NCBI GenBank assembly: GCA_030018435.1
Contig: JASEEY010000001.1
Location: forward strand, 11,038-75,037
Origin: Methanocellales archaeon
GTDB taxonomy: Archaea > Halobacteriota > UBA148 > JAUWXC01
DNA: 64,000 nucleotides
Direction of reading: 5' to 3'
Shown here: piece by piece, positions 15,023-51,748 of the stretch
How positions within the stretch are numbered: position 1 is the first letter of the stretch
Layout of the letters: each line of letters begins with the position of its first letter
The notes under the pieces: model-generated
The model's input: only the letters and a program-made list of their open reading frames with translations
Database searches by the model: none
What the model was told of the DNA's origin: nothing
Position numbers and translations under genes: made by a program

Positions 15023-15529
15023 ATGAAGAAGAAAAGAAGAAGCCCGTTTGACATATTCGGTGAGGACTGGCCTGATATATTTGGCGATGATTTTTACGAG
15101 AGATGGAAGAATTTGATAGAGAGAATGATGTCAGGAGAATTGGAAGGACCTGGTATCTATGGGTTCTCTGTGACAAGCCGACCAGGAGAGGAGCCGGAGA
15201 TTAGGGAGTTCGGAAATATACGCCCCTATGCTGGTGACATTGAGATAGGCGAACGCCGCCCCATCGTTGACGTGTTCGAATCAGATGAGGAGGTACAAGT
15301 GGTAGCGGAAATGCCAGGCGTCGAGAAAGATGACATCAAATTAGATGCAACCGAGACTTCGTTGGATATCAGCGCCAAAACGAGAGACAGGGAGTATTCT
15401 GAGCGCGTAGCCCTTCCGGCAAGAGTGGATCCCAACTCGGCAAAAGCCAGCTACAAGAACGGTGTGCTTGAAGTAATTCTCATGCGGGTTGAACCAAAAG
15501 AGAAGAGGCCCCCCATCAAAGTGGAGTGA
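15023..15529 (+). CDS. hsp20: small heat shock protein Hsp20 (alpha-crystallin domain)
   Basis: [19 protein letters not shown]...NGVLEVIL is the alpha-crystallin core. 18 nt downstream of cdc48 with a GAGGAGGA RBS. Confidence 0.85.
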
Positions 15530-15561
15530 GAGCTCACTTTTTCTTTTTTGCTGACATTAAA

Positions 15562-15790
15562 TAGCGGGGAGTGGATTTGAACCACTGATCTACGGGTATC
15601 CCACGATTTTCGAAAGGGGCGATCGTTTAGTACACTGCTTCAGGTGCACTTTCTTTTTTTGTATTTATAATCATAGTACTGTTGAATGAAGCGAATGTAG
15701 CACATTTTGACTAAATTGTTTTTGATCAACCTTTTTCTTAAAAAGGTTGGTTATGAGCCCGTCGGGATCTCCTGACTACCCCACCCCGCT
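15562..15790 (-). tRNA. tRNA-Met(CAU), initiator-like (A1:U72, three G:C pairs in the anticodon stem), with intron of about 154 nt (15598-15751) at 37/38
   Basis: Hand-folded from the reverse complement. 5' exon: AGCGGGGUGGGGUAGUCAGGAGAUCCCGACGGGCUCAUA. 3' exon: ACCCGUAGAUCAGUGGUUCAAAUCCACUCCCCGCU-A. Anticodon stem ACGGG/CCCGU, loop CUCAUAA, GGUUCAAAUCC T-loop. Confidence 0.7.
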
Positions 15791-15811
15791 ATGGTGTTAT
15801 ATAAGCCACAT

Positions 15812-16120
15812 CTATGTCTTGATGCTCTCTCGTTTGCTCAGCGTTGCCTGAATCTCGTCCAGCAACTCGTCCTCGGTCTTACCCTCGGTGGCAATGCCAA
15901 GCTCCTCTGCCATCTTTATTACCTTGCCTTTCTTCGCTCCCTTTGGTGCAGCTTCTAGGGATCGTTCAAACTCGCTCAATTCTTTCTCAGCTTCTCTCTG
16001 CGCCTTCTTGAACTCACCCATGGATTTGCCTACCGAGCGAGCCAGCTCTGGCAACTTCGACGCTCCAAAGAGGAGGATGATGATTACGCCTATGATCATT
16101 ATCTCATTTGGACCGATCAT
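15812..16120 (-). CDS. tatA: Tat translocase TatA/E-family protein
   Basis: N-terminal TM helix MIGPNEIMIIGVIIILLFGASKLPE followed by an amphipathic helix and an acidic tail. Confidence 0.85.
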   Translation of the reverse strand: MIGPNEIMIIGVIIILLFGASKLPELARSVGKSMGEFKKAQREAEKELSEFERSLEAAPKGAKKGKVIKMAEELGIATEGKTEDELLDEIQATLSKRESIKT

Positions 16121-16157
16121 TGATTTTCCACCTCATTCCAATATCTTGTCAACAATA

Positions 16158-16466
16158 TTAAACGTTCTGTTCCTCGGCTCGCTTCCTCAACTCTTTTTGA
16201 ATCTCATCCAGCAGTTCATCGTCAGTCTTGCCCTCGGTTTTGATTTTCAACTCCTCGGCCACCCTCTTTATCCTATCAACTTCCCCTTTTTCGGCCGCCC
16301 TCTTGGAGTACTGGAACTCGCTTAACTCGTACTCCGCTTCTTTCTGCGCCTTCTTGAACTCACCCATCGCCTTACCCATCGCCCTTGCCATCTCTGGTAG
16401 TTTATCTGTACCGAACAGCAGCAGTATTATTACAAATATCAGCAGTGTCTCCGTTGGTCCTATCAT
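16158..16466 (-). CDS. tatA: Tat translocase TatA/E-family protein (tandem paralog)
   Basis: MIGPTETLLIFVIILLLFGTDKLPEMARAMGKAMGEFKKAQKE has the same architecture as 15812-16120. Confidence 0.85.
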   Translation of the reverse strand: MIGPTETLLIFVIILLLFGTDKLPEMARAMGKAMGEFKKAQKEAEYELSEFQYSKRAAEKGEVDRIKRVAEELKIKTEGKTDDELLDEIQKELRKRAEEQNV

Positions 16467-35062: not shown

Positions 35063-36292
35063 TCAGTACAGTGGGAACCTGTTGCACAGTTCTGCAACCT
35101 CTTTTTTAATCCTATCCCTCGTCGCATTATCGCCAATGTTGAGTAGAACGTCGCTGATCATTTCTGCTATCCTTCTCATCTCCTCCTCTTTCAGCCCTCT
35201 CGTGGTAACGGCAGGCGTGCCTATTCGTATGCCAGAGGTGATGAACGGGCTCCTGGGATCAAAAGGAATGGTATTCTTGTTGACAATGATGTCCACCTCG
35301 CCCAGCGCCTCCTCCGCCTCCTTGCCCGTAATTCCCTTATCAGTTAGGTCGACCAATAGCAGATGGTTATCAGTTCCACCTGAAACGAGAGTGAATCCAC
35401 TATCCATCAACGTCTCAGCCAGCACCTTGGCGTTCTTGACAACCTGTCTCTGATATTCTTTAAAATCCTTGGTCATCGCCTGCTTGAATGTCACTGCTTT
35501 GGCAGCAATGGCATGCATCAGCGGACCGCCTTGAACGCCCGGGAAGACGGTTTTATCAATGACCTTGGCGAACTCCTCCTTGCAGAGAATAAAGCCACCT
35601 CTTGCGCCGCGCAACGTTTTGTGCGTCGTGCTCGTGACGAAATGCGAATGCGGCACGGGATTTTGATGTAGTCCGGCAGCTATCAATCCAGCGATGTGAG
35701 CCATGTCTACCATCAAGTATGCGCCAACCTCATCGGCAATTTTCCTAAACTCAGCAAAGTCAATCTCCCTTGGGTATGCACTGGCACCCGCTATGATGAG
35801 TTTTGGCTTGTGCTCTTTCGCCAATTTTCTTACCTGATCGTGGTCGATTCTCTGTGTCTCCCTGTCCACACCATACGAAACGGCATTGTAGAATTTCCCT
35901 GAGAAGTTCACAGGGCTGCCGTGCGTCAAATGTCCACCATGGGAAAGTTCCATGCCCATAATGGTATCGCCCACGTCTAGCACGGCAAAATAGACGGCCA
36001 TGTTGGCTTGTGCCCCCGAATGTGGTTGAACGTTCGCATACTCGGCGCCAAAAAGTTTCTTCGCCCTTTCGATGGCTAAATTCTCTACCACGTCCATGTA
36101 TTCGCAGCCGCCATAATATCTCCTCGACGGATAGCCTTCAGCATATTTATTCGTCATGACAGAACCTTGCGCCTCCAGCACCGCCTCGATCGCAAAGTTC
36201 TCAGAAGCGATCAACTGCAACCCAGACCTTTCACGCGTCTTTTCGGCAGCAATGGCTTTCGCCACCTCTGGATCTACCTCATTTAATTTCAA
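35063..36292 (-). CDS. glyA: serine hydroxymethyltransferase
   Basis: 409 aa. [12 protein letters not shown] (PLP Lys region), and SHMT-like throughout. Confidence 0.95.
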
Positions 36293-37818
36293 ATCGTTTC
36301 ACCTTTGCTGTGCCGCTTTCCCCATTCCTCTAGAGGGATGCTGTATTTTCGCTCGATTATGTCTCTAAAAGTTGGACCTGAATTATACGCGCAGAATGGG
36401 ATTATCCTTCGCTCTGGGTCTGGCGTGGCATAATGAATCACGCATCTCTTCACCCTCTCAATATCGTAATTATATGCATCCTGGAAGTGCATCGCACCTA
36501 TGAACAGCGCATTCCAGTGAAACTCTCCCAGCGATTTATAGTCCTGTTCCTTCAGCACTCGCTTGAGAACCGATTTGAGGTGTAAATCTTTTGGTTGCTT
36601 GTCATCATGTATGCATCTATTCAACGCCTTCAAACCCTTCATTAGAGCCCTAGTCTTAGCAAACCACCCGGAAGTCTTTAAGATGTCTACCGTATCATCA
36701 ACTGATGAAAAGAATTTATCCACATCTACGAATCGATTGATGGGAATGATATTACCATTGCTTACAAACGCATATGTCGCCACACCACAATGAGGATGCG
36801 CGCTGAACTCGATCTGTGGTTCTTTCCTGTATGCCTCAACCAGTTTAGATAACGATACAACGGATGGAACTGGATAGAAATCGGTTTTCCTGATCGCTCC
36901 GTCCGTTTGCTTTTCTATCCTATCCGCAAGATCGGGGATCGTAAACCTCTGCCGTTTTATATCATCAGCAGACGCCGCACCCGTGAATGCAATGGGCTGA
37001 AAATTAACACCCCGTATCACGTCGATGTTCTCCGCCGCAAAATAGAGGGTATCCCCTATTTCATGATCGTTAACGCCGTTGATGATGGTTGGAACGAGAA
37101 CGACACCTTGCCTTGCCTTTCTACAATTTTCAATCGCCTTCTTTCTGATCTCCAACAAGGGTTCCGTCTTTTTAGATGTCCCATCAAAGTGCAGATAAAC
37201 CGTGCTCAGCCCGGCATCTCTCAACGTCTGGGCCAACTCTGGCTCCCTTCCAAGCATGATGCCATTGGTCGCCATCTGTACCTGCAAGAAGCCCATTTCC
37301 TTGGCCATCTTGATCATATCAGGAAGGTCATCTCTGAGCGTTGGTTCTCCGCCAGAGAACTGAACCGCTATGGCAGGCACCGGTTGTTCGTTTCTTAAGG
37401 CAGAGAGCATCTCTCTTATCTGCTCCAACGACGGCTCATACACATATCCTCGCACGTTAGCATTGGCGAAGCAAAAATCACAAGATAAATTACACCTGTT
37501 GGTCACGTCGATGTTTGCCAAACACGTCGAACTTACGTGAAGGTTGCAGAGACCACAATCATCCGGGCAAGAAGAGGCCGTAATCTGGGGATTCTGAACG
37601 CCACTGCCGTCATATGCGTAATTCTCAGCCCTGAGATACATATCAACGTCTGACCAGTAAATGCCCTCAAAATATCCGTGAGCAGGGCACTCCTTGGACA
37701 TCCAGACGGCACCATCTCTCTCAAAGATATCCGCTTCTATAACTTTTCGACACTCGGGACATAAGGAGCTCGTTTTTTTAGGCAGTCCGCGTGGGAGTTT
37801 ACTTTGATATAAAGTCAT
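36289..37818 (-). CDS. radical SAM protein (509 aa) with N-terminal Cys-rich zinc-ribbon-like region; candidate cofactor-modifying enzyme
   Basis: [12 protein letters not shown] radical SAM motif. N-terminal CPECRK...CPAHG. 4-nt overlap with glyA. Confidence 0.7.
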
Positions 37819-45095: not shown

Positions 45096-46232
45096 TTACC
45101 ACAGCTCCCCGTTGAGGACAGACATGGTCTTGTCGTTTGTGCTCTGGTAGAGTCGCTTGATTTTGACCAGGTAACCCCCATCCACTTTTTCTGGTTCTTC
45201 AAATACAGCGTCAATGCCCATCCTATTCAGATGAGCTTCAAATTCTCGCGCCGTCTCTAAATATTTGACCTTGATCTGAACATTCTCACCGATTTGTTCA
45301 CCTCTTTTCCTGCTCTTGATTGTATACACCATCGGCTTCAGAATGCTCTCCCCAAGCTGCAGGCATCTTTCTCTTAACTCTTCCTCAGACTCATTCCACT
45401 CAACAGCCTGAAATCCTTCGCGTACAATTCTCGTGAAAAAGAATGGTCTTCCATAGTCGTTGTAAAACCTGAAACCATCTCTAAGGTCGCCACAGTTGCT
45501 CTGGGAACTCGTGTATTTGATGGGCGGTATCTTCGTCTGAGGATCCTTGATGACGATGCCTTCATGATTTTGTCTGCCAAGCTCCTTTACAATTTCCCTC
45601 GCTGCCGCACTCGCCTCGTTCACAGGATATTCGCCGAATATGCGCACCGATTTTATATTGTATTCCTCCACCAATCTCAGTCGCTGTGCTATTGGCAGAG
45701 AGGCGCCGGAGGCCTTCTTCTTGATGTCAAACAGAAAGAAGTCCAGTGAAGGAATGTCGTAGATGTCTTTTGGTACATACGGATTGTCCGGACCCACCAT
45801 CTCGCCGCAAAGAACCAAATCAGGATTATCCTTGAAAAATGCATCTCCGATTATGTCTCTTGCCTTCTCGGTGGTGTACGGGCAGACCAGTCCGCCCCTT
45901 GTGAGCCCAAAGATTTCCCCACCGATAGAGGCAATCCTCACGTTATACCCGTTCATCTTCTCTTCTATCATCACAGTAGGACAATCAAAATGGCGTTTAA
46001 TCGTCGGATCGAGTATCATCGCCCTTCTGATCTTCGGGAATCCCCTCACAATATCGATTTTCTCGTGAACGAATATCGCCGTTCCATTCTCGATGGCGCC
46101 ACACTCTTTGTCGAACCTAAACAAGTGTGGATGCTCCCCTTCCACCTCTTTGATAATTCCTCTGTCAATCAATTCGCGCAGTTGAGCACTGGGTATGTTA
46201 AGCTTCTCCGCAATCTCCTCAATCATCTCCAC
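45096..46232 (-). CDS. ATP-dependent RNA ligase (archaeal Rnl3/Pab1020-like)
   Basis: KMNGYNVR is the KxNG nucleotidyltransferase motif I. 378 aa in the layout of the archaeal homodimeric RNA ligase family. Confidence 0.7.
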   Translation of the reverse strand: MEMIEEIAEKLNIPSAQLRELIDRGIIKEVEGEHPHLFRFDKECGAIENGTAIFVHEKIDIVRGFPKIRRAMILDPTIKRHFDCPTVMIEEKMNGYNVRIASIGGEIFGLTRGGLVCPYTTEKARDIIGDAFFKDNPDLVLCGEMVGPDNPYVPKDIYDIPSLDFFLFDIKKKASGASLPIAQRLRLVEEYNIKSVRIFGEYPVNEASAAAREIVKELGRQNHEGIVIKDPQTKIPPIKYTSSQSNCGDLRDGFRFYNDYGRPFFFTRIVREGFQAVEWNESEEELRERCLQLGESILKPMVYTIKSRKRGEQIGENVQIKVKYLETAREFEAHLNRMGIDAVFEEPEKVDGGYLVKIKRLYQSTNDKTMSVLNGELW

Positions 46233-46995
46233 ACCTAATGATATTCCTACGGGTGATCATTCCTACCACATTATCCCGCAAATCAAGGACTGGTACGCCA
46301 CCTATATTCCCTTTCAGCATCATATCAACGACCTCTTGCAAAGGCGTATTAGGCCTGACAAATTTGACATTTACGCTCATTATATCGCTGATGATTAAAT
46401 TCCTGATCCGCATCTCCTGCTGATGCCCAGGAACCATGTCGCGAAAAGCCCTCATTGCCCTTGCGATATCGCTTTCCGTGACCATTCCCACTAATTGATC
46501 ACCATCCACAACAGGCATCCTGCCGATGGCCTCTTTATACATACGCCTTCTGACATGCACCACCCTCTCACTGGGCGTCGCGGTGATGGGATTTTTCATG
46601 ATCCTCCCGGCATATCCTTTTGGATGCAGGATGGCAAGCACTTCGTTGGGAGTTACCCACCCAACTAGGCTGTCATCCATAACCGCTAAAATATCTTCAC
46701 CTTGGAGCAGTTGAACGGCTTTCTCCGCGTTATCATCTGGCGAAATCATCATCAAGTGCTCGTCCATCGCTGTAGTCACATGCAAGGATGATGCCGGCAA
46801 GTTCGATTTTTTTCTGGTGCCAAGCGCCCTTGCAATCCCGCGCTGCGTCACCACTCCAATTAATTCATCGTCCTTTGTGACCAACAAACGCCTAACATCG
46901 TGTTTTTCCATCAAATCAAGGGCATGAGACAACATCTCCGACTTATCAATGGTCAGCGCTTTCGTCATTATATCCCTAACCTTGTGCCCTTTCAT
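46219..46995 (-). CDS. CBS-domain protein (4 CBS)
   Basis: Tandem CBS repeats and nothing else. Confidence 0.8.
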   Translation of the reverse strand: MKGHKVRDIMTKALTIDKSEMLSHALDLMEKHDVRRLLVTKDDELIGVVTQRGIARALGTRKKSNLPASSLHVTTAMDEHLMMISPDDNAEKAVQLLQGEDILAVMDDSLVGWVTPNEVLAILHPKGYAGRIMKNPITATPSERVVHVRRRMYKEAIGRMPVVDGDQLVGMVTESDIARAMRAFRDMVPGHQQEMRIRNLIISDIMSVNVKFVRPNTPLQEVVDMMLKGNIGGVPVLDLRDNVVGMITRRNIIRCGDD

Positions 46996-46998
46996 CGT

Positions 46999-47895
46999 TT
47001 ACCCCCACAGCATCCTGATGATATCGGTCTTAGCGATAACGCCTGCTAATCCCTTATCCATCACGGGCATCCCCTCGATTTTATGTTCTATTAGCATTTT
47101 TGCGGCATTGACTGCAAGCTCGTCCTTGCTCACGGTTATTAGAGGAGAGGACATGACATCTTCGGCAACGAGCCCTTTTTTTTCTATGTCCCTAAATCGC
47201 TTACGTCCTGCAGGGCTGTCCTTTCTAGTCATCTTTATCCCCTTCTCTGACATCTCGCCCCTTTCATCCTCTAATTCGGTAAACGCTAAATTTGACGATG
47301 TGATAATGCCAACCGGCGTATCATCATCTTCCATTACAATTACCCTATGCACTTCGTTTTTCTGCATCTCGTCTATCACGTGAGCTATCGAGTGATGGCG
47401 ATGAACCGTTACGACGAAATCGCTCATTATATCGCCAACTCTGACCCTTGACTTGGTGCTGGAAAACTGGCGAACTATGTCAAATTTGCTGATCATGCCA
47501 ACTAATCCCTTATCCATGACCGGCAATCCGCTGATGTTGTTTTCCAGCATCAACTCTTCAACTTCTTCCAGTAAGGCATCGGGATACGTGGTGATCGGAT
47601 TTTCACTCATCACCACCCTGACCGGGATATGATCAATTGATCGCCTGCGCCACATGGATCCTGCTTGCCTAAGTTTCCACATCAGGTCGGATTTTGTGAC
47701 TATTCCTATGGCTTTTTCATCATCAACGACCACTAACCTGCCTATCCCGTGCTTAAGCATCAGACGTCTCGCATGCGCGATCGTCTCCTCTGGAGCGATT
47801 ACGCGCACTGGCGAGCTCATAACATCCTTCACCTTCATACCATCATCCTGACACTTTAGTTTAAGCTTCGCGGTATACCTTGGTTTAAGTTTCAC
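46999..47895 (-). CDS. CBS-domain protein (4 CBS)
   Basis: Tandem CBS repeats. Confidence 0.8.
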   Translation of the reverse strand: MKLKPRYTAKLKLKCQDDGMKVKDVMSSPVRVIAPEETIAHARRLMLKHGIGRLVVVDDEKAIGIVTKSDLMWKLRQAGSMWRRRSIDHIPVRVVMSENPITTYPDALLEEVEELMLENNISGLPVMDKGLVGMISKFDIVRQFSSTKSRVRVGDIMSDFVVTVHRHHSIAHVIDEMQKNEVHRVIVMEDDDTPVGIITSSNLAFTELEDERGEMSEKGIKMTRKDSPAGRKRFRDIEKKGLVAEDVMSSPLITVSKDELAVNAAKMLIEHKIEGMPVMDKGLAGVIAKTDIIRMLWG

Positions 47896-48835
47896 GTAAT
47901 GCCCGTAAGATGTCCCTCTCGGTGAGTATGCCCATTAGAAAGCCGTCATCAATGACCGGCAGCGATCCCACCTTTTTATCCATCATGAGTTTGGCGGCAT
48001 CGCCTAAGTCTACATCGGAGGTTGTGGTGACGACATTGGGCACCATAATCGTCTTAATTGCGGGCTCTAACGCCTCCTGAATGTGTCCAGTAACCAGTTT
48101 GTCAAATGCTTTTCCTCCGCCAAGATATTTCACGATGTCGGTGGCGGTGACGATCCCCAGCAACACATCATCTCTTATAACTGGTAGTCTCCTAAATCCG
48201 TTGGAAACCATCGTTTTGGCAGCCTCCCCTATGGAGATGTCGGGCGGTGTGGTTACCACCCTTCTGCTCATGTAATCCCCTACAATCTTTCCAGTTTTCA
48301 CATCGGCAATCAGATATGCAAAATCGCTTTCGGAAATGATGCCTACAACCCTATGCCTATCATCCACAATGGGTAGCCCACCTATATTCTGTATAAGCAT
48401 CGTGTTCAGCGCGTCCTCTAATGACTGGCGATCGCTCAGCGTTATCACATCGACTTCCATGATCTCCCGGACGTCTCCGTTGATTGCAGCAAGCAGGTTC
48501 CCACCATATCTCTTTTTGACTAAATTGTGTCGTTCGCCGCCTCCCAAGAAATCAATCAAATCAACGCTCGTGATAATCCCAACAAGCCTATTCGTGCCCG
48601 GGTCTGCAACGGGGACCTTCCTTAAGCCATATGTCATCATCGTTTTTATTGCCCCCATAATCGTCATGGTCGGCGGAATCTTGATCACTTCTCTAGATGC
48701 AATCGTCATCACATCGCCTGGGCGTGATGATATACGGGATTTGAATTCCACCGGCCCCCTGTCGAGCACAGCTTCGCTCGCATCGTTTGCGAGTCTTGCA
48801 CCCCTTTTTATCCCATTATGGCGTCTTCTCATCAC
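47885..48835 (-). CDS. CBS-domain protein (4 CBS)
   Basis: Tandem CBS repeats. Confidence 0.8.
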   Translation of the reverse strand: MMRRRHNGIKRGARLANDASEAVLDRGPVEFKSRISSRPGDVMTIASREVIKIPPTMTIMGAIKTMMTYGLRKVPVADPGTNRLVGIITSVDLIDFLGGGERHNLVKKRYGGNLLAAINGDVREIMEVDVITLSDRQSLEDALNTMLIQNIGGLPIVDDRHRVVGIISESDFAYLIADVKTGKIVGDYMSRRVVTTPPDISIGEAAKTMVSNGFRRLPVIRDDVLLGIVTATDIVKYLGGGKAFDKLVTGHIQEALEPAIKTIMVPNVVTTTSDVDLGDAAKLMMDKKVGSLPVIDDGFLMGILTERDILRALRET

Positions 48836-48836
48836 A

Positions 48837-49661
48837 TCACACCCTGATATAACCCCTGATCAAATCATATCTGTCTACGATGCCGACTAGCTTGTCGTTC
48901 TCGATAACGGGCAATCTTCCAATATCGTGCGTCAACATCAGCTCAGCTGCCTCTTTCAAACTGGTCCCAGGATGGACAGTGTATACAGGCGTGCTCATTA
49001 TCTTCTCCACCGGTGGTGAACTGCTCATTCGTCCGCCGTGTTCGTTCTCCTTGCCCATCCTGGCATAACCAGCCTTGATGATATCCCGACGGGTGACCAT
49101 TCCTATGAGTTTTCCTCTTTTGACAACCGGAAATCCACTATATCCGAATTCATCCATGTTTGCCCAAACTTTAGAAACAGGATCTTTAGGATGACACACC
49201 TTTACGTCTGTGCTCATCACTTCGCCAACCATTTTGACCGGTACTCTATCTAGATTTATGTGTTTGAATATGTCAACGATGCTGATGATGCCAACCAATG
49301 TCCGATCATGAACCGATTTTACCACTGGCAATCTTCCCAATTTCGCTGTAAGCATGATCTGGGCCACCTCCAGCATATCCATATCCGGTGTAATTGTTGG
49401 GCATTCCAAGGCAAACCCATCGACGGTCACGTTGGACTTTGTAGACGTTACCCTCAATACATCTTGTCTGGTTATGAGCCCCATCACTCGTTTTTCGTCA
49501 TCAACAACCGGCAAACTCCTGAAATGACGGTCCCGAATCAACTGGCGCGCTTTGGTCATGAATTCGGTACCTTTGATAAATACGGGACTTTTGGACATCA
49601 CATCCTGTACTTTTATGAGAATCCTCCTCCTATCGGGATACCTCGTCTTTACAACTTTCAC
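48837..49661 (-). CDS. CBS-domain protein (4 CBS)
   Basis: Tandem CBS repeats. Confidence 0.8.
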   Translation of the reverse strand: MKVVKTRYPDRRRILIKVQDVMSKSPVFIKGTEFMTKARQLIRDRHFRSLPVVDDEKRVMGLITRQDVLRVTSTKSNVTVDGFALECPTITPDMDMLEVAQIMLTAKLGRLPVVKSVHDRTLVGIISIVDIFKHINLDRVPVKMVGEVMSTDVKVCHPKDPVSKVWANMDEFGYSGFPVVKRGKLIGMVTRRDIIKAGYARMGKENEHGGRMSSSPPVEKIMSTPVYTVHPGTSLKEAAELMLTHDIGRLPVIENDKLVGIVDRYDLIRGYIRV

Positions 49662-50184
49662 AAACCAGTATCCCGTTCACCATTTCCAGAGCATCTGAGA
49701 GCTCTCCGCATCTCTCACAAATGCCTTGTTCGAGTCCTTTTACGGGCCTGAATGAAATATGCTCGCGATTCATCTCGATTAAATTTGAAAGAATGTCAGC
49801 AAGTCCAGAGGAAACTGCAATCATGTCGGTATCGGTGACGATGCCAACCAGTTTGCCATTCTCGATAACGGGCAATCTTCTGATGTCCAATTCTGCCATT
49901 TTTCGCGCAGCCTTGTCTACGCTGTCATCTGGCGATACGGTAACAAGTGGCCGCGTCATCAGATCCTTGAGCGTGGCAGAACTGGGCTTTAGGTCTTTCG
50001 AGACAATTGTTCGCACCATATCTCGCTCTGTCACGATGCCCACGGGTTTGCCCTTGTCAGTTATGATAAGAGTTCCTACATTGTGTGCGATCATCTTTTT
50101 TCCTGCATCCGAGGCTTTCATATCGCTTTCGGCTGTGATGACACCTTTTGTCATGATCTCTCGCACTGGCATTCTGGTTTCCAT
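49630..50184 (-). CDS. CBS-pair protein with C-terminal zinc ribbon
   Basis: Two CBS repeats followed by CERCGELSDALEMVNGILVCESC. Confidence 0.8.
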   Translation of the reverse strand: METRMPVREIMTKGVITAESDMKASDAGKKMIAHNVGTLIITDKGKPVGIVTERDMVRTIVSKDLKPSSATLKDLMTRPLVTVSPDDSVDKAARKMAELDIRRLPVIENGKLVGIVTDTDMIAVSSGLADILSNLIEMNREHISFRPVKGLEQGICERCGELSDALEMVNGILVCESCKDEVSR

Positions 50185-50316
50185 GTCATCTTCCTCCTTG
50201 TCACCATTTATTATTCCGTGCTTTACCTATAAAACAATCGCGACTGTTCGGTGCAATAAAAATATATATGGCGACCAGGACATATACCTATATGATGTCT
50301 TCTCTAGAGGGGGATA

Positions 50317-50952
50317 ATGGGAGTAATAGAAAAAATTAAGAAAAATTTGCCCTCTTGGGTCAAAAAGATTTTTAAGAAGAAGAGGGCACGCATCGGCATT
50401 TATGGTCCGCCAAATGCTGGAAAAACCACCCTTGCTAATAGAATCATCAGGGATTGGAGCGGGGATGCAATAGGTCCTGTATCGGAAATACCACACGAAA
50501 CCCGCAGGGCGAAGAGGAAAGAGGGGATTGTGGTCAATGCCAACGGCGCAGCCATAACCTTGGATGTCGTAGACACACCCGGTTTGGCGACAAAGATCGA
50601 TTTTCACGATTTTATGGCTTATGGATTAGATGAAGCAGAAGCTAAGCGTAGGGCAAAGGAGGCGACGGAGGGGGTGATAGAAGCGATCAAATGGCTGGAT
50701 GATTTGGATGGGATCCTATTAATCATGGACGCAACTGAGGACCCATTTACGCAGGTCAACGTCACGGTCATTGGCAACATGGAGGCAAGAGAGTTGCCCT
50801 TGTTAATCGTAGCGAATAAGATAGATTTGCCAGAAGCTTCACCGGCGAGAATTAAAAGTGCATTTCCACAACATACCGTAATTCCCATATCCGCCCTTGA
50901 AGGATACAACGTGGACAAACTTTATGAATCGATAGCAAATCACTTTGGGTGA
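50317..50952 (+). CDS. small P-loop GTPase
   Basis: GPPNAGKTT (G1), DTPG (G3), NKID (G4). Confidence 0.75.
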   Translation: MGVIEKIKKNLPSWVKKIFKKKRARIGIYGPPNAGKTTLANRIIRDWSGDAIGPVSEIPHETRRAKRKEGIVVNANGAAITLDVVDTPGLATKIDFHDFMAYGLDEAEAKRRAKEATEGVIEAIKWLDDLDGILLIMDATEDPFTQVNVTVIGNMEARELPLLIVANKIDLPEASPARIKSAFPQHTVIPISALEGYNVDKLYESIANHFG

Positions 50953-50958
50953 TGTAGG

Positions 50959-51375
50959 ATGAGCAAGAAGAAAACTAAGAAGAGACGGACTGAAAAGTCA
51001 AATGCCCACGAAGGAATTAGAATAGATATCATCTCGAAGGATCGTATTTCAACTATGGCACCAATGGAAAAGATCAGGCTCATCCTCGATATGGTCCGAG
51101 ATGGCAGCATTGTGATTCTCGAGAGAGGTCTTACTCCAGAAGAGGAGGCGAAATTGATCGAGATGACCATGACCGAGATCACACCAAACGACTTTTCTGG
51201 CATTGAGATCGAAAGCTATCCCTGCAAACAGAGAACCACCTTTCTGGGCAAACTTTTGGGCAAAACGATGTTCGAAACGCGGCTTACCGTAGTCGGGGCG
51301 GCGGACCAACTCAAGACCCTGAAGAGGGATCATGATTTTATCAGCGCACTAGTATCTGTGCGTTCACGGGGGTAG
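50959..51375 (+). CDS. DUF2073-like archaeal protein
   Basis: 138 aa with a basic N-terminus. Immediately downstream of the GTPase. Confidence 0.45.
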   Translation: MSKKKTKKRRTEKSNAHEGIRIDIISKDRISTMAPMEKIRLILDMVRDGSIVILERGLTPEEEAKLIEMTMTEITPNDFSGIEIESYPCKQRTTFLGKLLGKTMFETRLTVVGAADQLKTLKRDHDFISALVSVRSRG

Positions 51376-51376
51376 A

Positions 51377-51748
51377 ATGCCGCACAAATGCACCAGATGT
51401 GGAAAAATATTCAAGGAGGGTGCATCCGAAATTTTAAGCGGGTGCCCCAGTTGCGGATGGAATAAATTTCTTTATGTAACTGGTGCTGAGACGTCAGAAT
51501 CAGAAGCAATAGACATCGAGGAACTGATAAGCAAAGTGGAAGTCGAAGAGAGAGAAAAACCCAAAGACGTCGATTCTCACAAGGTTGAGAGCGTAAAAAT
51601 AGTCGGTCCTGGTTCATATGAACTTAACATAGAGTCGCTTCTTGATAGGCCAGAGATCATCATGGCGTTGAAAGAAGAGGGGACATACATGGTTCACCTG
51701 CCATCTATTTTTGAGAGTAGAAGCAAGAAACGTAAGCGCAAGAAATGA
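51377..51748 (+). CDS. zinc-ribbon protein (DUF2072-like)
   Basis: N-terminal CTRCGKIF...CPSCGW zinc ribbon and an acidic/basic C-terminus. Confidence 0.5.
   Translation: MPHKCTRCGKIFKEGASEILSGCPSCGWNKFLYVTGAETSESEAIDIEELISKVEVEEREKPKDVDSHKVESVKIVGPGSYELNIESLLDRPEIIMALKEEGTYMVHLPSIFESRSKKRKRKK

Follow-up and report, generated by a model that had tools for sequence, protein, structure and literature searches.

A conserved array of CBS-domain genes in a Methanocellales archaeon very probably encodes orthologs of the ribosome hibernation factors SriA-D, beside a predicted Rnl3-family RNA ligase

What is the function of five tandem genes whose products are CBS-only proteins, and how did these genes come to stand side by side? 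The question is raised by a 64,000-nucleotide stretch of DNA from a Methanocellales archaeon (contig JASEEY010000001.1), referred to here as the window. The original prediction, made from the sequence alone, described five minus-strand genes encoding four proteins of four CBS repeats each and one of two CBS repeats with a four-cysteine ribbon, and proposed that they were either a sensor battery or the result of recent tandem amplification. Open reading frames and Pfam searches confirmed the description, including the stand-alone nature of the proteins: CBS (PF00571) was the sole family found in genes A to E, in 2+4+4+4+4 stretches (E 8e-33 for the two in gene A; E 4e-45 to 6e-59 for the four in each of genes B to E). 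In the order of transcription, and with the names assigned below, the genes are A (CBS-Zn, 49630-50184, 184 aa), B (sriA, 48837-49661, 274 aa), C (sriB, 47885-48835, 316 aa), D (sriC, i.e. ARC-P, 46999-47895, 298 aa) and E (sriD, i.e. ARC-A, 46219-46995, 258 aa). These five genes lie where they had been placed, but the array does not end at 46219, because a sixth minus-strand gene, F (rnl, 45096-46232), had been overlooked. Gene F is the last of the block and overlaps the end of sriD by 14 nt, or by 8 nt when counted from ATG 46226. The zinc-ribbon gene, previously taken to be the last, is the first on this strand, i.e. transcriptionally upstream.

When the longest open reading frames were used, the packing was as tight as had been claimed (genes overlapping or no more than 3 nt apart), with a 32-nt overlap at the A/B junction, a 1-nt gap at B/C, an 11-nt overlap at C/D and a 3-nt gap at D/E. 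However, some of these longest-frame starts are probably too long. Alignment to Methanosarcina acetivorans SriC most likely puts the true sriC start at ATG 47838, in which case the C/D junction would be a 46-nt gap. The candidate starts for sriA are GTG 49661 (longest frame), a site near ATA 49616 just 3' of GGAGGAGG, and GTG/ATG 49601/49598; the N-terminus of M. acetivorans SriA aligns near residue 16 of the gene B product, right behind the GGAGGAGG motif. We consider it very likely that cbsZn (A), sriA, sriB, sriC, sriD and rnl form a compact six-gene minus-strand unit. Co-transcription of the tightly packed array, as first suggested, is judged probable, and all six genes are presumed to share a transcript, which would most likely start in the 132-nt intergenic region (50185..50316) between the CBS-Zn gene and oapA/arvA, common to this unit and the divergent oapABC/arvABC operon. 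Read directly from the sequence, this region contains the A/T-rich TATA-like stretches TTTTATAG and ATATATATTTTTAT, and a Shine-Dalgarno-like AAGGAGGAAG motif lies a few nucleotides upstream of the gene A ATG; it is likely to serve as a promoter region, although sigma-70 promoter scans of it are not applicable to archaea.

The tandem four-CBS genes are explained by an array that is already known, sriABCD. SriA-D, whose first description dates from 2026 (Nissley et al., Nat Commun 2026, PMC13454478), are ribosome hibernation factors encoded in M. acetivorans by MA4648-MA4651 and by syntenic sriA-D genes in 529 species (PMC13454478). They make direct contact with the ribosome and obstruct its functional sites, as cryo-EM and genetics have shown (PMC13454478). 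They inhibit translation in M. acetivorans, where deletion of sriABCD leads to a longer lag and to loss of 30S subunits and 16S rRNA (PMC13454478). Ribosome binding, inhibition of translation and stationary-phase rRNA protection are known from M. acetivorans and Methanolobus only. The M. acetivorans ribosome structures 9ZNF, 9ZNG and 9ZNI contain 70S-SriA-SriB, 70S-SriD and 70S-SriC-SriD, respectively (PMC13454478). Each window protein was the specific best match of one of these chains, in the same gene order: B matched 9znf chain 4, which is SriA (E 7e-78, with the other Sri chains at 3e-18 or weaker), C matched 9znf chain 5, SriB (E 4e-87), D matched 9zni chain 6, SriC (E 2e-73), and E matched 9zni/9zng chain 7, SriD (E 1e-74). 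Cross-matches of B-E to non-cognate Sri chains had E values of 1e-11 to 4e-21. These assignments come from a best-hit test against PDB chains, whereas the published ones used a tree. Taken with the domain content, the gene order, the pocket motifs and the extension and loop that contact the ribosome, this one-to-one correspondence makes it highly probable that genes B-E are orthologs of sriA-D; their ribosome binding and physiological role in the source organism are predicted from that orthology. The window cluster is 46-49% identical to that of Methanosarcina sp. KYL-1, the figure on which the predicted Sri function in the source organism rests, and the support from the M. acetivorans Sri chains themselves consists of profile-level matches.

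By orthology, SriA would be a large-subunit factor for the A and P sites. In M. acetivorans the SriB extension reaches into both the peptidyl transferase centre and the exit tunnel (PMC13454478), and window SriB likewise has about 40 residues ahead of CBS1, forming a basic N-terminal extension with the conserved LDRGPVEFKSRIS motif. SriB is recognised by more than 15 extension residues that align to M. acetivorans positions 27-56, and phmmer pairs window SriB residue 25 with M. acetivorans residue 44; in the length of this tail the window protein falls about 19 residues short of M. acetivorans SriB. SriC, putatively a small-subunit factor for the P and E sites and for the 3' terminus of 16S rRNA, carries between CBS3 and CBS4 a long basic loop (34 residues, with 11 K/R against 8 D/E) whose alignment to that of M. 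acetivorans (positions 191-225) is free of gaps. SriD would act on the small subunit at the A site and the mRNA channel, but there is no room in the window gene for the N-terminal extension found in M. acetivorans SriD. The SriB motif and the SriC loop are common to M. acetivorans and the window, as is a dual-CBS gene lying upstream. The spacing differs: the window genes overlap or are separated by no more than about 46 nt, compared with 160-470 nt in Methanosarcina sp. KYL-1.

Adenylate sensing, which had been suggested for these proteins, is plausible. The Methanolobus proteins ARC-P and ARC-A, which are orthologs of SriC and SriD, bind AMP and are freed from ribosomes by ATP (bioRxiv 10.64898/2026.01.19.700304). 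Examination of the ligand-binding residues found T/S-x-x-D in most CBS motifs of the array, including those that correspond to the motifs of these proteins. In SriC the canonical Asp is present in both GIVTKSDL (CBS1) and GMISKFDI (CBS2); in SriD, CBS3 has GMVTESDI (T-E-S-D), while CBS1 has GVVTQRGI, which lacks the Asp as it does in ARC-A. The ARC-P/ARC-A pocket pattern for AMP and ATP thus agrees with that of window SriC and SriD (bioRxiv 10.64898/2026.01.19.700304), and nucleotide binding by these two is plausible. The Methanolobus ARC was described as a two-protein complex, whereas window SriC and SriD sit in a full four-gene set.

Other CBS tetrads are also known as ribosome hibernation factors, namely Dri of Thermoproteota, with lobes homologous to SriA and SriC, and HibA/AHA, in which a SriA-like set of four CBS repeats is fused to HPF/RaiA (PMC13324472, PMC12934967). 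The window proteins are single tetrads and have neither the HPF domain of HibA/AHA nor the two-tetrad fusion of Dri. The four-CBS protein MJ1225 of Methanocaldococcus jannaschii (PDB 3KH5/3LFZ) was the second-best PDB match of window SriB (E 2e-65). Residue 5 of its 280-aa chain aligns to window SriB residue 42, so that MJ1225, like the short forms of SriB, has no N-terminal extension.

Gene F encodes a predicted ATP-dependent RNA ligase of the Rnl3 family (MthRnl/Pab1020 type), a family that includes MthRnl (MTH1221) and Pab1020/TkoRnl. It scored 431.5 bits with TIGR01209 (cut-off 136.9), contains both domains of the family, RNA_ligase (PF09414, 4e-26) and Lig_C (PF18330, 1e-43), and matched MthRnl (PDB 5d1o) with E 1e-103. 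Its motif I, EEKMNGY, includes the family's adenylylation lysine (KxxG), and E90, E91, K92, M93, N94, G95 and Y96 are invariant among 10 orthologs. The gene is closely linked to sri. In samples made up of the best 80 matches per scan, and so not an unbiased survey, the CBS-Zn-sriABCD-rnl block was present in 33 of the 35 A-anchored genome loci with a full sri set and downstream room, and among 54 ligase-anchored metagenome loci, 52 had A-(SriA)-SriB-C-D immediately upstream of rnl. The order A-sriABCD-rnl is also that of Methanobacteriaceae loci. Identity to Methanosarcina is much the same for each of the six genes (45-50%), in keeping with co-inheritance. The rnl gene overlaps sriD in the window, but in Methanosarcina about 1.3 kb with a gene on the opposite strand separates the two, and the six genes therefore do not form one transcript there. 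The closest relatives (L001 and L002, whose five CBS proteins are 69-85% identical) and Methanocella keep A-sriABCD without rnl, which indicates that the ligase is dispensable for Sri function. No mention of the linkage was found in the hibernation-factor or Rnl3 literature searched; it is a conserved, testable side lead beyond the already-known array. The proposed physiological roles of Rnl3 differ, and include C/D box sRNA circularisation and action on rRNA fragments; RNA circularisation or 3'-deadenylation has been shown for MthRnl and TkoRnl only (PMC9014305, PMC5599603).

Gene A sits immediately upstream of sriA in almost every cluster locus and corresponds to M. acetivorans MA4647 by position and architecture. 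Both of its T-x-x-D ribose motifs are canonical, and the four cysteines of its C-terminal CxxC...CxxC (C156, C159, C175, C178) are invariant among 12 homologs; it has 3516 homologs, most of the matches listed being about 180-215 aa. In its AF2 model (pLDDT 84), β-strands occupy residues 166-175 after a low-confidence linker. The closest known architecture is that of Thermoplasma acidophilum TA0289 (PDB 1PVM and 2QH1, 'CBS-rubredoxin-like protein'), which likewise joins a CBS pair to a C-terminal four-cysteine ribbon. The TA0289 entries were the sole near-full-length PDB matches that include the ribbon: Foldseek aligned 168-175 columns of 2qh1_A and 1pvm at a query-normalised TM of 0.67-0.68 and 26% identity, with an overall rmsd of about 12 Å that reflects a different domain orientation, and the phmmer match (E 8e-12) covered residues 5-151 only, i.e. 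the CBS part. Metal binding by the TA0289 ribbon has as its sole support the title of PDB 2qh1 ('Fe+2-bound state'). The A-like genes of Thermoplasmata stand alone, with neither sri nor rnl as neighbours. The zinc-ribbon protein had been proposed as a terminal output, which does not suit an upstream gene whose M. acetivorans counterpart, MA4647, is not co-transcribed with sriABCD in exponential growth (PMC13454478).

The tandem arrangement and similar gene lengths are all that speaks for a recent amplification of one CBS gene in the source lineage, and the identity matrix and synteny refute this explanation, to which we give almost no probability. The matrix had been proposed as a check for recent duplication and gave only 24-35% pairwise identity among the paralogs, against figures of 41-59% and 33-59% to positional orthologs in other orders. 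In Methanoperedens, Methanosarcina, Archaeoglobi, Hydrothermarchaeota and Methanobacteriaceae, the positional ortholog of each paralog resembled it far more than its neighbours in the array did, and every paralog has a separate same-order ortholog from Methanosarcinales to Methanobacteriaceae, Archaeoglobi and Hydrothermarchaeota. A search for the same array in relatives found the sriA-sriB-sriC-sriD order in 39 A-anchored and 49 Rnl-anchored loci, i.e. in more than 80. The paralogs are ancient and are held as a strictly ordered conserved operon; the original prediction had allowed for ancient paralogs that are dispersed in relatives, and of this the age stands but the dispersal does not. A generic battery of stand-alone adenylate sensors (AMPK-gamma/IMPDH-like), controlling unrelated enzymes and clustered by paralogy, is also very improbable. 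Adenosine ligands are common partners of CBS pairs, the T/S-x-x-D motif is canonical in most CBS motifs of the array, and NCBIfam gave generic, sub-threshold CBS matches only. However, such a battery does not agree with the one-to-one orthology of each four-CBS protein to a ribosome-bound Sri chain, with the conservation of the ribosome-contacting SriB tail and SriC loop, or with a strict gene order held across classes, and it misses the function of orthologs of proteins that block ribosome sites.

We consider it unlikely, though less so than either of these, that the CBS proteins, or a core of CBS-Zn, a SriB-like protein and Rnl3, mainly regulate or target the RNA ligase, with ribosome occlusion secondary. 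Such a module would carry out energy-gated RNA repair or end editing, e.g. sealing of rRNA nicks or removal of tRNA 3'-A. No neighbour of the array is as constant as rnl, and Archaeoglobaceae and Geoglobus loci have lost sriA, sriC and sriD and retain only A, a short SriB and Rnl. The activities of MthRnl (ligation, 3'-phosphate cyclisation and 3'-deadenylation) are inhibited by excess ATP (PMC5599603), and aberrant rRNA fragments build up in a Thermococcus kodakarensis rnl knockout (PMC9014305). Against this, cryo-EM and genetic results show that the action of Sri proteins on ribosomes is direct and does not involve the ligase (PMC13454478), the Methanocellales-like relatives have sri genes without rnl, and in Thermococcales, unlike in the window, Rnl3 (TK1545) does not adjoin the CBS hibernation gene hibA (TK1186).

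We therefore favour the hibernation-factor reading, under which the gene A protein and the Rnl3 ligase may be functional partners of the Sri system, the former most likely as a nucleotide- or metal-sensing regulator or an extra factor and the latter most likely in RNA-end repair or remodelling, with rRNA or tRNA as its target, in dormancy or after it. By orthology, SriA and the N-terminal tail of SriB would fill the 50S A and P tRNA sites as well as the peptidyl transferase centre and exit tunnel, and SriC and SriD the 30S P/E and A sites together with the mRNA channel and the 3' terminus of 16S rRNA. By analogy with the orthologs of Methanolobus, binding of SriC and SriD would go together with AMP in their CBS pockets, and ATP would release them. 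Through binding of the Sri proteins, idle ribosomes would be silenced and their rRNA protected over long starvation, and the lag on resumption of growth would be shortened as a result.

The ORF listing and Pfam searches confirmed that five consecutive minus-strand genes at 46219-50184 encode proteins in which CBS is the sole domain type (E-values of 8e-33 to 6e-59). Gene A (49630-50184 (-), 184 aa) has two CBS domains and a C-terminal CxxC...CxxC, and is followed by four genes with four CBS domains each, i.e. gene B (48837-49661 (-), 274 aa), gene C (47885-48835 (-), 316 aa), gene D (46999-47895 (-), 298 aa) and gene E (46219-46995 (-), 258 aa). When the longest ORF is taken, the A/B junction is a 32-nt overlap, B/C a 1-nt gap, C/D an 11-nt overlap and D/E a 3-nt gap. 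The original prediction had the zinc-ribbon gene as the last member; as the genes lie on the minus strand, it is actually the first. The series also extends beyond 46219, where a sixth gene (gene F, rnl; 45096-46232 (-)) overlaps gene E by 14 nt (8 nt if counted from the rnl ATG).

We assigned the four 4-CBS genes by sequence search of the PDB, with membership criteria taken from the methods of the paper on the single ribosomal subunit inhibitors (Sri) of M. acetivorans (PMC13454478). Genes B, C, D and E gave as best chains 9znf chain 4 (7e-78), 9znf chain 5 (4e-87), 9zni chain 6 (2e-73) and 9zni/9zng chain 7 (1e-74), and each matched the other three Sri chains at only 1e-11 to 4e-21. These entries, 9znf, 9zng and 9zni, are M. 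acetivorans 70S ribosomes with SriA-SriB, SriD and SriC-SriD, respectively (PMC13454478). They were also considered as a stand-alone CBS complex or a CBS-ligase complex; this was rejected, as the entries are 70S-Sri structures and the ligase had no 9ZN* match. The window's SriB (gene C) carries ~40 residues ahead of CBS1, including the motif LDRGPVEFKSRIS, which is kept in SriB of Methanosarcinaceae, Methanothrix, Methanoperedens, Methanobacteriaceae and Hydrothermarchaeota and is absent from the short SriB of Archaeoglobaceae. SriC (gene D) has the long basic CBS3-CBS4 loop (11 K/R and 8 D/E across 34 residues), which aligns without gaps to that of M. acetivorans. The ribose-binding motifs are canonical in SriC CBS1 (T-K-S-D) and CBS2 (S-K-F-D) and in SriD CBS3 (T-E-S-D), whereas SriD CBS1 lacks the Asp (T-Q-R-G) and SriC CBS3 and SriD CBS4 have Asn in its place; this is the pattern of ARC-P and ARC-A, the names given to SriC and SriD in an independent preprint. 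Compared with the M. acetivorans proteins, the SriB tail is ~19 residues shorter and SriD (gene E) has no N-terminal extension, while the genes are much more tightly spaced; these differences are small. The array is real, and its explanation is already known from the 2026 literature.

In that literature (Nissley et al., Nat Commun, June 2026; preprint January 2026; PMC13454478), four 4-CBS Sri proteins are encoded as an operon (MA4648-4651), and each of them inhibits translation in vitro. SriA, together with the N-terminal tail of SriB, occupies the A/P sites, peptidyl transferase centre and exit tunnel. On the 30S subunit, SriC and SriD take up the P/E and A sites along with the mRNA channel and the site of the 16S rRNA 3' end. 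After 28 days in stationary phase the lag of a quadruple sri deletion was 32% longer, and the deletion was depleted of 30S subunits and 16S rRNA; of the 1,636 archaeal species with sri genes, 529 have sriA-D in synteny (PMC13454478). The independent preprint places AMP in ARC-P CBS1/CBS2 and ARC-A CBS3 and reports that ATP triggers release of ARC from the ribosome (bioRxiv 10.64898/2026.01.19.700304). Orthology lends good support to the same mechanism for the window's four proteins: SriA-D would bind idle ribosomes as two pairs, blocking the tRNA, mRNA and catalytic sites and shielding the rRNA, with their on/off state probably set by adenine nucleotides.

These results bear on the two explanations first offered for the array, i.e. 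a sensor battery with a terminal zinc-ribbon output, or a recent tandem amplification. The sensor battery is unsupported, as the four proteins are Sri orthologs and the ribbon gene lies upstream of them, while the proposed adenylate sensing is in line with the published mechanism (AMP bound, and release of the SriC/SriD orthologs triggered by ATP). Recent amplification was ruled out by the pairwise identity matrix together with the higher identities between orthologs. In all-against-all BLASTP the four 4-CBS proteins were 24-35% identical to each other, and the highest identity anywhere among the paralogs was 40% (A vs C, over one CBS pair), whereas same-position orthologs were 41-59% identical in Methanoperedens, Methanosarcina, an Archaeoglobi MAG and Hydrothermarchaeota, and 33-43% identical in Methanobacteriaceae. 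The identities thus indicate that the duplications behind the array are ancient. A role in defence was also rejected, as the scores against the NCBIfam 'DS11 CBS anti-phage protein' model (21-63 bits, with a cut-off of 260) reflect generic CBS similarity.

Gene A belongs to a well conserved family (3516 matches, most of the listed members being ~180-215 aa), and in an alignment of 12 homologs the four Cys of the CxxC...CxxC were invariant; both of its CBS motifs are canonical. Some homologs of 214-227 aa (P0066, P0080 and P0022, one of them labelled Halobacteriota) have two consecutive 4-Cys ribbons in place of one. Many CBS pairs match the AlphaFold model of gene A (pLDDT 84), and the only near-full-length PDB matches to include the ribbon were to Thermoplasma TA0289 (1pvm/2qh1; TM 0.67-0.68, 26% identity), which is titled 'CBS-rubredoxin-like protein, Fe2+-bound'. 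Gene A thus has a known, TA0289-like architecture, with orthology to TA0289 unproven. The Pfam match of the ribbon to DUF7573 (18 bits, cut-off 30.2) was not significant.

The product of the sixth gene scored 431 bits against TIGR01209 (cut-off 137), contains RNA_ligase and Pab1020 C-terminal domains (Pfam) and matched MthRnl (PDB 5d1o) with an E-value of 1e-103; on this basis gene F is predicted to encode an Rnl3-type ATP-dependent RNA ligase, a type first characterised in 2008. MthRnl circularises or ligates 5'-P/3'-OH RNA, cyclises 3'-phosphates and removes 3'-terminal adenosine, the last activity being inhibited by excess ATP (PMC5599603), and an rnl knockout accumulates rRNA fragments (PMC9014305).

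We analyzed the conservation of the six genes in two scans in which every ORF was classed by its best-scoring window protein: a genome scan anchored on gene A (best 80 species-level loci) and a metagenome scan anchored on the ligase (best 80 loci, 48-61% identity). A-SriA-SriB-SriC-SriD was present in 39/80 loci of the genome scan, and rnl came directly next in 33 of the 35 full-set loci with at least 5.2 kb downstream, usually with a 4-nt overlap or a gap of <40 nt after sriD; the exceptions (L040 and L044) were two Methanocellaceae (Methanocella-type) loci. In the metagenome scan A-(SriA)-SriB-SriC-SriD lay directly upstream of rnl in 52 of the 54 loci that had 4.6 kb or more of upstream sequence. 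All six genes have diverged from those of Methanosarcina to a similar extent (45-50% identity), which fits co-inheritance. Eleven loci of the genome scan, mostly from Archaeoglobaceae and Geoglobus, had a reduced form consisting of A, a short SriB and Rnl; at L053, L055, L058, L061, L066-L069 and L073 (Archaeoglobaceae, Geoglobus and MAGs) SriB has no N-terminal extension and sriA, sriC and sriD are missing. The distant A-like genes of Thermoplasmata, Bathyarchaeia and Nitrososphaerota were mostly solitary. One full cluster (CBS-Zn, sriABCD, rnl) with Methanosarcinaceae-like scores was on a contig labelled 'Candidatus Dojkabacteria bacterium' (PWFU01000072.1, locus L051), which is probably a mis-binned archaeal contig.

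No conserved seventh gene was found 3' of rnl, where the genes are lineage-variable (the largest family was present in 24/101 loci); HARP RNase P, which has been described as co-occurring with Rnl3, is not a conserved follower of rnl, and the window has a convergent aminotransferase gene at this place. In Thermococcales hibA (SriA-like, TK1186) and rnl (TK1545) are far apart, judging by locus tags. The window's closest relatives (L001, CP061209.1, 987 kb, and L002) keep oapCBA, the five CBS genes (proteins 69-85% identical) and the convergent aminotransferase-AsnC-PGK, but sriD is followed by the aminotransferase without an intervening rnl; rnl is therefore not required for Sri function. The window's Rnl had no relative above 61% identity among the 80 metagenome loci, although gene A has a 93% identical match in the closest public sequence, a Methanocellales MAG contig (L005).

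The start of sriA (gene B) is ambiguous within 49596-49661 (-). Its longest ORF begins at a GTG (49661) within gene A, the motif GGAGGAGG lies at the gene A stop codon and is followed by ATT/CTC/ATA codons, and the N-terminus of M. acetivorans SriA aligns to the ATA codon at 49616-49614, a hint that the start codon is non-canonical or else a GTG/ATG further downstream. Any plausible start lies at most ~30 nt from the gene A stop; because of this spacing and of GGAGGAGG, gene A and sriA are likely to be co-transcribed in the window, unlike in Methanosarcina, where the CBS-Zn gene and sriA are 227 nt apart and no read-through from the CBS-Zn gene (MA4647) into sriA was seen in exponential-phase M. 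acetivorans (Nissley et al., PMC13454478). All six genes may be transcribed as a single unit from the 132-nt region that gene A shares with a divergent operon (50317-51748 (+)) that encodes a small GTPase, OapB and OapC (Pfam), i.e. ArvA/B/C. A scan for bacterial promoters and terminators was uninformative for an archaeon. In Haloferax, the GTPase OapA/ArvA drives the formation of extracellular vesicles. The oapABC/arvABC operon was head-to-head with gene A in only 8 of the 57 genome-scan loci with room upstream (Methanocellales-like, one Archaeoglobi MAG and Methanohalarchaeum), and we treat it as a lineage-specific neighbor rather than part of the unit. The genomic context is that of ordinary chromosome, with the housekeeping genes PGK, OTCase, PurD, SHMT and aRF1 and a methanopterin-related radical SAM enzyme. 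The latter (36289-37818 (-)) has an HMPTM N-terminal zinc-ribbon domain, which is consistent with an archaeon of the methanogen or methanotroph type.

The conserved bracket of CBS-Zn and Rnl3 genes around sriABCD is a side lead that is unmentioned in the literature searched. The hibernation-factor and Rnl3 papers that we searched do not mention a link between sri and rnl: the word 'ligase' is absent from the Sri paper (PMC13454478) and the ARC preprint (bioRxiv 10.64898/2026.01.19.700304), 'RNA ligase' from the HibA and AHA papers, and 'CBS' from two Rnl3 papers, and the search found nothing on MTH1222-1226. We tentatively suggest that the true unit is the six genes, CBS-Zn, sriABCD and rnl3, and that Rnl3 and the CBS-Zn protein could be working parts of a ribosome dormancy/recovery pathway, acting in the same process as Sri. 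On this six-gene reading the link would have been masked by the arrangement in the model genus Methanosarcina, where rnl is split from sriD and the CBS-Zn gene is separately transcribed. In Methanosarcina sp. KYL-1 (L037) sriD and rnl are separated by an opposite-strand gene (15510-16325 (-), 271 aa) and every intergenic gap measures 160-470 nt, i.e. the compact unit has been broken up; the intervening gene could account for the link having been overlooked in the model organism. Given the published activities of Rnl3 and the rRNA fragments in the rnl knockout, RNA-end repair or end-capping by Rnl3 during dormancy or recovery is a reasonable hypothesis: it might seal or cap the ends of damaged rRNA in an ATP-gated manner, or remove the 3'-A of tRNA during dormancy for later repair, while the CBS-Zn protein might be a nucleotide- or metal-sensing switch.

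At this locus SriA-D can supersede the annotation 'CBS domain-containing protein'. The sri genes of several archaeal orders have a CBS-Zn gene at one end and an overlapping Rnl3 gene at the other; if this linkage is functional, it would give the hibernation system two further candidate components and archaeal Rnl3 a concrete, testable physiological setting. The array itself would keep idle ribosomes silent and intact during long starvation, which matters for slow-growing relatives of methanogens and methane-oxidisers.
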